Positions 34,331 through 34,459 are shown, counted from the stretch's first letter. The stretch is 64,000 nucleotides of DNA from Minisyncoccota bacterium (GCA_035546615.1 DASZWM010000002.1:15460-79459), one strand, 5' to 3'. Translations and numbers: made by a program. The notes: generated by a model from the sequence alone, not told the origin.

Positions 34331-34345
34331 CAAAAGACGCAAAAT

Positions 34346-34364
34346 GCAACCTTCGTTGCTTTTT
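34346..34364 (+). terminator. terminator after tRNA-Trp
   Basis: GCAACcttcGTTGC followed by TTTTT. Confidence 0.55.
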
Positions 34365-34365
34365 G

Positions 34366-34459
34366 TGCGTTGCGGGAGACGGAGCGATGCCGCGCAATGG
34401 CGCGGCCGCGAGTCGGGGTCGCGAAAATTTTTTGCGACGGCAAAAAGTTATTTGTGACC
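34366..34459 (+). repeat. tRNA-associated structured repeat, short form (copy S2, downstream of tRNA-Trp)
   Basis: A variable hairpin GCCGCGC-aatg-GCGCGGC, CGCGAGTCGGGGTCGCG, the hairpin TTTTTTGC-GACG-GCAAAAAG, and TTATTTGTGACC. Its tail overlaps the miaA stop and last codons. Confidence 0.7.

Follow-up and report, generated by a model that had tools for sequence, protein, structure and literature searches.

REP/BIME, BOX, RUP and Correia sequences and the palindromic elements of Rickettsia are simple palindromes or carry terminal inverted repeats, and they are restricted to a genus or a family. The element described here resembles them in being short, ORF-less, multicopy and located at the 3' ends of genes, and also in its predicted folding as RNA, its possible overlap with coding ends and its gain or loss between relatives. 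Tyrosine-integrase islands are another close system, and the sub-locations of integrase sites within tRNA genes were reportedly classified by Williams in 2002. Here the likeness lies in the target genes and in the extent of the direct repeats, and the tRNA is left intact. Group I introns interrupt the anticodon loop of the tRNA and measure 200 nt or more, and IS608 relies on the pairing of a guide with the cleavage site.

The element downstream of tRNA-Trp

The locus that we have analyzed lies between a tRNA-Trp gene and a convergent miaA gene in a 64-kb window (the whole stretch of DNA studied, 64,000 nt). Its parts are the following, in coordinates of the window.

34260-34331, plus strand: tRNA-Trp gene, anticodon CCA (ARAGORN; Rfam tRNA, 66.1 bits)
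34323-34329, plus strand: 3' strand of the tRNA-Trp acceptor, followed by the discriminator G at 34330
34328-34331, plus strand: DR1, the left direct repeat (CCGC), at the very 3' end of tRNA-Trp (alignment A4 of filled and empty sites; sequence)
34332-34461, plus strand: the element copy, ~130 bases 3' of tRNA-Trp, made up of the P0 hairpin and a three-way-junction core of ~95 nt
34338-34367, plus strand: P0, a terminator-like hairpin inside the inserted block (fold; absent from empty sites)
34346-34359, plus strand: core stem-loop of P0, GCAACcttcGTTGC, that is, GCAAC-cuuc-GUUGC, between an A run and a T run
34367-34377, plus strand: IR and J1/2, short and G-rich, IR being the usual 5' strand of P1 (cmsearch alignment)
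34378-34414, plus strand: P2 arm (cmsearch alignment)
34389-34406, plus strand: P2b, a variable hairpin of 7 bp with a 4-nt loop, GCCGCGC-AAUG-GCGCGGC
34407-34423, plus strand: CGCGAGTCGGGGTCGCG block
34415-34416, plus strand: J2/3 (GG), with triple-like covariation at 34415
34417-34459, plus strand: P3 arm, its 3' strand terminating in UUAUUUGUGACC (fold; alignments)
34436-34439, plus strand: GACG tetraloop of P3
34448-34459, plus strand: TTATTTGTGACC block
34448-34459, both strands: 12-nt shared stretch, P3 3' strand on plus and MiaA G-H-K-stop on minus (sequence; ORF)
34458-34461, plus strand: DR2, the right direct repeat (CCGC), followed by TCAAAAA... (alignment A4)
34448-35341, minus strand: miaA, tRNA dimethylallyltransferase, 297 aa, convergent on the element (ORF)

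P0 has the features of a terminator on both strands in a pattern scan. The P2 arm consists of a GAC/GUC helix, a conserved internal loop (GGA/GA), a GCG/CGC helix, an AU bulge and the hairpin P2b, and the base of P3 is a conserved GGUCG/UGACC with a G.U pair and a conserved bulged A (34450). The TCAAAAA... that comes after DR2 is found, in relatives whose site is empty, directly 3' of tRNA-Trp. The Trp copy has a fold z-score of -4.2 and contains the core of the family to which we assign it, NCGGAGC ... GCGAGNC(G/A)GGGUCG ... A ... UGACC, with the arms P2 and P3. The covariance model of this family (R1, see below) matches it over its full length (34358-34473, filters off) with 90.0 bits and an E-value of 3e-29, which like all those of R1 is rough; the match begins 27 nt past tRNA-Trp, with P0 preceding it. 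The original prediction of a short-form repeat at this place is thus borne out, with the terminator, the hairpin with a 4-nt loop and the GACG hairpin in the order given there, both by the part order, which is identical in the copy behind tRNA-Lys as had been claimed, and by the covariance-model search that it had proposed. The weak point of this copy is P1, in which five of the seven model pairs are mismatched and only GCGG (34372-34375) can pair with CCGC (34458-34461). With P1 nearly gone, decay or inactivity of the Trp copy is possible even within a functional family.

Copies in the window and the wider family

Run on the whole window, R1 returned exactly five copies, with 90 to 102 bits and each located just 3' of a tRNA; the next best score was 15.7 bits, a difference well above anything that chance would give. 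Besides the Trp copy they are:

24177-24292, plus strand: short form 3' of tRNA-Lys(ctt) (91.0 bits; sequence)
24303-24423, minus strand: long form 3' of tRNA-Cys (92.8 bits; sequence)
31959-32079, minus strand: long form 3' of tRNA-Tyr (97.7 bits), its tail repeating 15 nt of the tRNA-Tyr 3' end
55550-55670, plus strand: long form 3' of tRNA-Gln (101.7 bits; sequence)

Five of the eight tRNA genes in the window are therefore trailed by a copy. As for two others, tRNA-Leu(CAA) is followed by a different structured insert in an equivalent frame, for which an exact-string search of the fetched loci gave no homologue, and tRNA-Leu(UAG) is directly followed by tRNA-Lys. The sequence GCGAGYCGGGGTCGCG has two exact copies in the window and the related GCGAGGCAGGGTCGTG three further ones, each adjoining a tRNA. 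The tRNA-Lys copy agrees with the terminal 12-mer of the Trp copy at 11 of 12 positions, since its final block is GTATTTGTGACC.

In order to collect homologues, a degenerate pattern was scanned against one genome per species, which gave at least 118 stretches, ~85 of those listed having the full architecture. Nearly all of the stretches listed come from Patescibacteria (Paceibacterota, Kaiser-, Nomura-, Adler-, Zambryskii- and Yonathbacteria and bins labelled Saccharibacteria) and four from Elusimicrobia, all the homologues deriving from metagenome bins, some of them with doubtful taxonomic labels. R1 was built from the 79 copies of alignment A2 and matched at least 116 times over the fetched loci and the window, and at least 118 times in a combined run that included the miaA loci. 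Part of the invariance seen in GCGAG, GGGTCG, GACG and TGAYC stems from the fixed pattern used to collect the seed set. There are 19 R1 matches outside the collecting pattern, and in these the bases close to the junction are kept (CGGAGC, GCGAG-N-C-G-GGGUCG, the bulged A and GUGAC) and P2 and P3 are variable or shortened farther out. The family also includes decayed and truncated copies (24-60 bits), tandem arrays and a solo long form. The core sequences do not track tRNA identity cleanly, the nearest relatives of the window copies being often found at other tRNAs in other genomes, with the proviso that so short a core cannot give a firm tree.

Among the copies listed that have enough upstream sequence to be assessed (96), 74 are preceded on the same strand by a tRNA or tmRNA gene at a distance of no more than 250 nt, most often 27-29 nt, and two more trail tmRNA genes that were found by Rfam alone, which raises the figure to 76 of 96. 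The upstream partners comprise 20 different tRNA and tmRNA types. Protein genes are also involved, with four copies located 9-31 nt past the stop codon of topA, in four genomes and lineages, and one copy after rpsI. We have clustered the 371 ORFs found within 2 kb of ~110 copies, and no recurrent partner protein family emerged; the largest clusters are housekeeping by sequence (LepA-type GTPase, MiaA and TopA), and no cluster showed similarity to a transposase, an integrase or a reverse transcriptase.

Rfam 15 at gathering thresholds recovers only the eight tRNAs from the whole window, and permissive scans (E up to 10) of the Trp copy, the Gln copy and the Leu-CAA variant gave nothing relevant above 20 bits. 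No description of the element was found in full-text searches of the openly accessible literature. A scan of viral contigs with the family pattern returned a single match of atypical length, taken as chance; the element is not phage-borne. We conclude that the element is a predicted structured RNA class outside Rfam 15, present in Patescibacteria and a few Elusimicrobia, and we have filed it as a new kind because the testable defining features of the known systems fail and there is no match in Rfam or in the literature.

Several more specific identities were considered for the RNA. No Rfam model of a known self-cleaving ribozyme class matched. A kink-turn in the internal loop of P2 was discarded since the bulge has 1 nt and not 3, and the G of the key G.A pair is a C in some copies. 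A hammerhead core in the tail was equally discarded, the CUGAYCGA found there being one base too long when compared to CUGANGA, again with no model match. The resemblance to TIGR-Tas arrays (PMC12045711) amounts to an overlap of keywords.

Covariation and the shape of the core

Alignment A2 folded with RNAalifold yields 23 pairs, 15 of them with compensatory changes. The structure drawn by hand has 40 pairs (P1, P2 and P3), and 87.5% of its cells are paired, against 33-43% when the partners are slid by one to three columns; the cells with double changes number 707, against 227 +/- 14 in shuffled alignments, none of 500 shuffles reaching that value. A good example is the 3-bp helix at the base of P2, the middle pair of which is CG in 31 sequences, GC in 30 and AU in 13. 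At the alignment pair 95-127, 40 sequences have GC and 37 have GU, and the P3 base pair is always G-U, which was partly fixed by the search pattern and recurs with covarying neighbors in the off-pattern matches. Because such G-U pairs would be A-C mismatches on the opposite strand, the strand that folds is the tRNA-sense strand.

A scan of mutual information in A3 (the model-based alignment) gave one strong signal outside the helices, linking the J2/3 nucleotide 34415 with the P3 pair C34422-G34454 (mutual information of 0.80 and 0.76). The first nucleotide of J2/3 is G where this pair is C-G and A where that position is U opposite C, a behavior reminiscent of a base triple. In one subfamily (L018:4486, L035:6092) the tetraloops AGYA of P2 and GACG of P3 are swapped between the arms. 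Every helix shows compensatory changes and one covariation is triple-like, which marks the predicted fold of the core as being under strong selection. The conservation of the junction, the triple-like signal and the tetraloop swap point to a specific three-dimensional RNA fold rather than to a generic palindrome.

Closing helix and direct repeats

In the closing helix P1 the internal segment IR pairs with the stretch that comes immediately after the core, which in the copies linked to tRNAs is a direct repeat of the 3' end of the upstream tRNA. This results, in both the short and the long forms, in the layout DR1-P0-IR-core-DR2. In the long forms the exact tRNA repeat follows right after ...UGAC and runs from C56 of the T loop to the 3' end plus up to 8 nt of trailer, reaching 27 nt in L035, 26 nt in L080, 24 nt in L019 and 15 nt in the tRNA-Tyr copy of the window. 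In the short forms only the last few bases of the tRNA and a few of the trailer are repeated, mostly CACAAR, and CCGC(AA) in the case of tRNA-Trp. A stretch of at least 10 nt is shared with the 3' end of the own tRNA in 27 of 65 copies versus 3 of 316 mismatched controls. In P1 the repeat is faced by its imperfect reverse complement, the 5' strand, which in 13 of 22 long forms is prolonged into a copy of the acceptor 5' strand, so that IR:DR2 reproduces the acceptor and T-stem minihelix of the neighboring tRNA with the core in place of the T loop.

Since IR can pair either with DR1 (tRNA end and trailer) or with DR2, the transcript would have two mutually exclusive folds. We know of no mechanism that yields both a repeat of the target and an internal segment complementary to it, and perfect repeats as long as 20-27 nt are, to our knowledge, not ordinary target-site duplications. 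The combination of perfect 20-27-nt repeats with imperfect internal complements would seem to fit guide-directed targeting better than slow compensatory drift.

Overlap with miaA and history of the insertion

The MiaA protein of the window is 100% identical to P0001, a protein named MiaA at NCBI that comes from a Candidatus Paceibacterota bin, and has the Pfam domains PF01715 and PF01745. The reverse complement of 34448-34459 reads GGT CAC AAA TAA (G H K stop), so the 12-nt antisense overlap is real, and the ORF together with this reading confirms the earlier assignment of the final 12 nt to the C-terminus of miaA on the opposite strand. It is the conserved UUAU of the P3 3' strand that provides the convergent frame with its TAA stop. 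We have examined the C-termini of the best 120 MiaA homologues, which end in LSR (34), GGR (19), SGR (13), LTS (9), GHK (4) and others. The four proteins ending in GHK, the one of the window included, are all encoded next to the element; at the other three loci (L119, L120 and L121) a short form faces miaA with the identical 12-nt overlap, with R1 scores of 93.8 bits for L120 and 86.3 bits for L121. Thus, among these 120 homologues the GHK ending occurs only beside the element, in agreement with what the original prediction had expected from related genomes, and the element itself is found at at least 90 other loci, so that neither a C-terminus independent of the element nor an element confined to this site was observed.

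Relatives devoid of the element reveal what the site looks like when empty. In L122 (a Kaiserbacteria bin, SGR*), L124 (an Adlerbacteria sample, GGR*) and L126 (CGR*) there is no R1 match, and the distance from miaA to rpmG (L33) is ~76 nt, the size of a tRNA-Trp. For L126 this refers to the length of the gap (76 nt); L122 and L124 were read base by base, and in both the miaA stop overlaps the acceptor 3' strand of tRNA-Trp directly. The 76-nt gap of L122 contains tRNA-Trp only, and the gene ends in AGC GGG CGC TGA, which on the other strand is TCAGCGCCCGC, the 3' strand of the acceptor; L124 is similar, with GGC GGG CGC TGA. When filled and empty sites are aligned (A4) the difference is a clean indel of ~131 nt with CCGC at each side, the junctions being ...CAGCGCCCGC / AUAAGAC ... 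UUAUUUGUGA / CCGCUCAAAAA... (slashes mark the limits of the insert). P0 is part of the insert, past which the old trailer TCAAAAA(A)TTTTT resumes.

As read from this alignment, the Trp copy is an insertion of ~131 nt (P0, IR and core) into an older overlap between tRNA-Trp and the stop of miaA, and by it the predicted end of MiaA was rewritten from ...GR* to ...GHK*. Since the element was inserted into an overlap that already existed, the shared 12 nt are a by-product and not a dual use favored by selection. Membership in the family, insertion and the by-product nature of the overlap are conclusions that, taken jointly, we hold with high confidence. In a neighbor-joining tree the four GHK proteins fall within a clade of 13 leaves in which they are mixed with other endings, and the nearest neighbor of P0086, from a filled site, is P0065, from an empty one. 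The tree is weak and suggests gain or loss of the element among fairly close relatives.

Possible roles and alternative explanations

The explanation that overall accounts best for these data, and that we regard as moderately probable, is that of an RNA module spread by insertion at the 3' ends of genes and co-transcribed with the tRNA. The element would act as RNA, produced within the 3' trailer of the tRNA when transcription reads through P0, and its spread, past or present, would take place at gene 3' ends without a protein gene of its own. Read-through is suggested because a promoter scan of 33900-34700 gave no promoter-like site, hence none between tRNA-Trp and the core, and because several long forms have no terminator ahead of them. 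If P0 with its U run is as efficient a terminator as it looks, little core RNA would be made. As to function, we commit to the guess, a tentative one, that the conserved junction binds a partner. This might be a protein acting on RNA 3' ends; in many long forms, where tRNA-processing enzymes could plausibly trim and stabilize the IR:DR2 minihelix, the junction might ride on a tRNA-minihelix frame trimmed by RNase P, RNase Z or the CCA-adding enzyme; or it might take part in its own insertion with the internal segment as a guide. The last possibility can be carried further, to a core that would be the catalytic or protein-recruiting heart of an RNA-guided insertion element devoid of protein genes, whose insertion duplicates the paired target, although this we consider unlikely. 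The internal segment would then be a guide pairing with the 3' ends of tRNA or tmRNA genes or transcripts, the targets being the near-universal CGA(A/U)UC of the T loop in the long forms and the last bases of the tRNA plus trailer in the short ones. A related reading has the core as a new ribozyme that would cut the strand paired with the guide, maturing both the tRNA 3' end and its own.

For some copies the position is conserved, as after topA in four lineages, and this agrees equally well with mobility and with a functional element that is inherited vertically.

The main competitor of an insertion-spread module is a housekeeping cis-acting one, a device kept by the host at 3' ends behind tRNA, tmRNA and a few protein genes, which could serve in the processing of the tRNA 3' trailer, in termination, as insulation or as a block to 3' exonucleases, and in which the alternative pairing of IR with DR1 or DR2 would be a switch that couples the folding of the tRNA 3' end to that of the element. 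This would explain why so many tRNA genes of the window are trailed by a copy (five of eight, with a variant in an equivalent frame at a sixth), the conserved positions after topA (four lineages) and after rpsI, the conservation of the junction across phyla and the presence of mutually exclusive pairings in both forms. We still find it rather unlikely, given that L122, L124 and L126 have no element at tRNA-Trp, that decayed or truncated copies (24-60 bits) coexist with tandem arrays and solo copies, and that P1 has been lost in the Trp copy. Because many relatives lack a copy at the equivalent tRNA, the element appears to be dispensable at any given site. If what spreads is a repeat structured at the level of DNA and without RNA function, i.e., a miniature relic of a single-strand DNA transposon like IS200/IS605, or a REP-like sequence mobilized by a Y1 HUH transposase, the strand-specific fold, the insertion beside a short fixed sequence with a repeat of 3-4 nt, the multiple copies after hairpins at gene ends and the internal segment complementary to the flank, which recalls the guide pairing of IS608, would all be expected. 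Against it, there is no recurrent transposase-like gene near the ~110 copies and no Rfam match to the IS605-orfB or HEARO RNAs, the three-way junction, tandem G.A, conserved G.U and triple-like covariation are typical of RNA, and conservation across phyla is unlike that of REP or miniature transposons, all of which makes this reading improbable.

Scars (attL/attR) of integrase islands once integrated in tRNA or tmRNA genes would account for the targets, which are the 3' parts of these genes, and for the repeats, which span the part between the T loop and the 3' end or cover the extreme 3' end, both of them known integrase sub-locations. We consider them highly improbable, since the unit has only 130-190 nt with no ORF, a single covarying RNA core is found in all copies across phyla, the repeats carry trailer bases specific to the locus, the topA copies have no tRNA at all and integrase is absent among the neighbors within 2 kb. 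The simplest proposal, an ordinary intrinsic terminator followed by a miaA 3' region that is rich in hairpins by chance, deserves practically no credence: P0 does fit the pattern of a terminator, but the 90-bit R1 match, the fold z-score of -4.2, the orthologous copies in L120 and L121 and the ~110 homologues elsewhere speak against it.

Some identities were discarded on their defining features. An intrinsic terminator and nothing else is one of them, for P0 fits, yet ~95 nt past P0 are conserved and covarying. In a miniature inverted-repeat transposable element the inverted segment would not be internal, as it is here, pairing with the flank repeat and not with the other end of the element, nor is there a duplication of fixed length, with 3-4 nt in the Trp copy and 27 nt in L035. 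An integrase island does not agree with an insert of ~131 nt that has no ORF and no integrase among its neighbors within 2 kb, even if the element has one feature of such islands, in that the 3' part of the tRNA is directly repeated, over as much as 27 nt in long forms but over no more than CCGC in the Trp copy. A derivative of IS200/IS605 or a TnpB guide RNA would be expected to match Rfam and to have TnpA or TnpB, and there is neither a match nor a cluster of these proteins within 2 kb of the copies. As for a group I intron, tRNA-Trp is intact, the element lies 3' of the tRNA, its core has ~95 nt and the Rfam model Intron_gpI does not match; the group I introns described in tRNA genes of Patescibacteria are located in the anticodon loop (PMC13011429).

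Should our favored reading of an insertion-spread RNA module be true, Patescibacteria, whose genomes are among the most reduced known in bacteria, would carry behind most tRNA operons a structured RNA class missing from Rfam and from the papers searched. Its junction, conserved over classes and into Elusimicrobia, and its closing helix, a copy of the neighboring tRNA end, would point to a new step in the handling of tRNA 3' ends, a natural sRNA scaffold based on a tRNA minihelix or a mobile element that spreads with no protein gene of its own. There are also consequences for annotation, since the elements reshape the ends of neighboring genes, as in the change of MiaA from ...GR* to ...GHK*, and the duplicated tRNA 3' ends could pass for att sites or pseudo-tRNAs. 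With model R1 the question can be put directly to metatranscriptomes and to in vitro tests.

Comparison with known systems

When set against REP and the other extragenic repeats, the element differs by its three-way junction, conserved junction bases and triple-like covariation, and also by its distribution over classes of Patescibacteria and Elusimicrobia, its tie to tRNA and tmRNA genes and a P1 derived from the tRNA-end repeat. The differences from tyrosine-integrase islands are the lack of integrase and cargo, a size 100 times smaller, the trailer bases in the repeat and the internal inverted copy of the repeat.

With the guide systems (group I and II introns, IS608, the IS110 bridge RNA and the homing guides of type V-K CRISPR transposons) there are in common a carried segment complementary to the insertion site and the tRNA 3' end as a target, whereas the element matches no known class of ribozyme core in Rfam and has no gene for a recombinase, a reverse transcriptase or a Cas protein in its vicinity, and the target is duplicated instead of split. 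Ribozymes and riboswitches built on a three-way junction (hammerhead, twister-sister, purine) are similar in size, topology and the centering of conservation on the junction, but their signature bases are missing, no Rfam model comes near threshold and the element is found 3' of genes and not in 5' leaders. Finally, tRNA-like scaffolds (the tRNA-like domain of tmRNA, YrlA/Y-RNA-like mimics, mascRNA-type processing, engineered scaffolds) resemble the many long forms that frame a foreign domain with a copy of the acceptor and T-stem helix, a frame that could recruit RNase P, RNase Z or the CCA-adding enzyme. Unlike in such scaffolds, the tRNA-like frame is missing altogether from the short forms and from the copies behind topA, and where the frame exists it is an exact copy of the neighboring tRNA in which the domain replaces the T loop, with no mimic of the D-arm or the elbow.

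Genomic settings of the element

Four copies of the element, each from a different genome, are located 9-31 nt downstream of the topA stop codon, and the closing helix P1 of these copies is not tRNA-derived. In the loci that we fetched from other genomes (L handles) they are:

L091, 7500-7619, strand as topA (Pfam Topoisom_bac), copy after topA
L028, 6617-6736, the same
L089, 2724-2841, the same
L111, 4715-4832, the same

Another copy trails rpsI in L068. The copies after topA and rpsI therefore show that the family is not strictly bound to tRNA genes. A solo copy of the long form (L069, 1577-1711, +) has a protein ORF and a terminator upstream and no nearby tRNA gene; its tail resembles a tRNA 3' end (CAAAUCCCAUCACUCGCGCA).

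Head-to-tail arrays of at least two copies, spaced 110-160 nt, were also found, in some of which the tail of a copy also forms the 5' flank of the copy that follows:

L062, 5786-6058, tandem array
L102, 6047-6272, tandem array
L027, 5462-5731, tandem array
L090, 5572-5874, tandem array
L073, 1636-1996, tandem array
L002, L039, L095 and L006, further tandem arrays

Copies may also converge, as in the window at 24283-24305, where the ends of the tRNA-Lys copy (+) and the tRNA-Cys copy (-) are no more than about 10 nt apart. Common to both is a small hairpin, GCGAGACGC, with A and T runs on either side, which looks like a bidirectional terminator.

Repeats of tRNA sequence and other inserts

The short-form copy at tRNA-Trp in L106 (1390-1470, -) has the repeat CCGCAA, and 20 nt past it comes another repeat, a long one, taken from tRNA-Trp between the T-loop and the 3' end (15 nt identical), so that both kinds of repeat can coexist at one site. 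In the window, the 10-mer CGCGCCTATA appears twice, 80 nt apart (23995-24004 and 24075-24084). At tRNA-Lys it comprises the base before the gene and the first nine bases of the tRNA; the upstream occurrence, between tRNA-Leu(UAG) and tRNA-Lys, could be the relic of a partial duplication or a product of chance.

The frame that trails tRNA genes can hold other structures:

window, 36935-37075, -, structured insert unlike the family core, 3' of tRNA-Leu(CAA) (37099-37185)

This insert consists of a hairpin, GGGAGAAUCG-AAAG, two unrelated hairpins and finally CGAUUCCCCCCGCCA, a repeat of the tRNA 3' end. It was not detected by our covariance model R1 (built from 79 element copies) and had no Rfam match. 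In L018, tRNA-Leu(CAA) bears a true family member. Comparable cargo in the same frame was seen in L015 (-) near 1166 and L024 (-) near 1733.

Junction and loops

In the model-based alignment A3, the first base of junction J2/3, a base of the P3 5' strand and its partner covary as a set of three, either as G, C and G or as A, U and C (window equivalents 34415, 34422 and 34454). The pattern resembles that of a tertiary base triple located in the junction. One subfamily has the tetraloops swapped between arms, with GACG on P2 and AGCA on P3, a hint that they act as modular contact sites:

L018, 4486-4581, -, swapped tetraloops
L035, 6092-6185, -, swapped tetraloops

Overlap of miaA and tRNA-Trp

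In relatives that lack the element, the final two or three codons of miaA, together with its stop, run antisense to the 3' strand of the tRNA-Trp acceptor:

L122, 2459-2470, opposite strands, element absent
L124, 3395-3405, opposite strands, element absent

We infer the same overlap in L126 from spacing only. Among the 120 best MiaA homologues, endings in G-R-stop are common (SGR in 13, GGR in 19). In L122 and L124, a protein gene and a tRNA gene on opposite strands overlap at the end of miaA.
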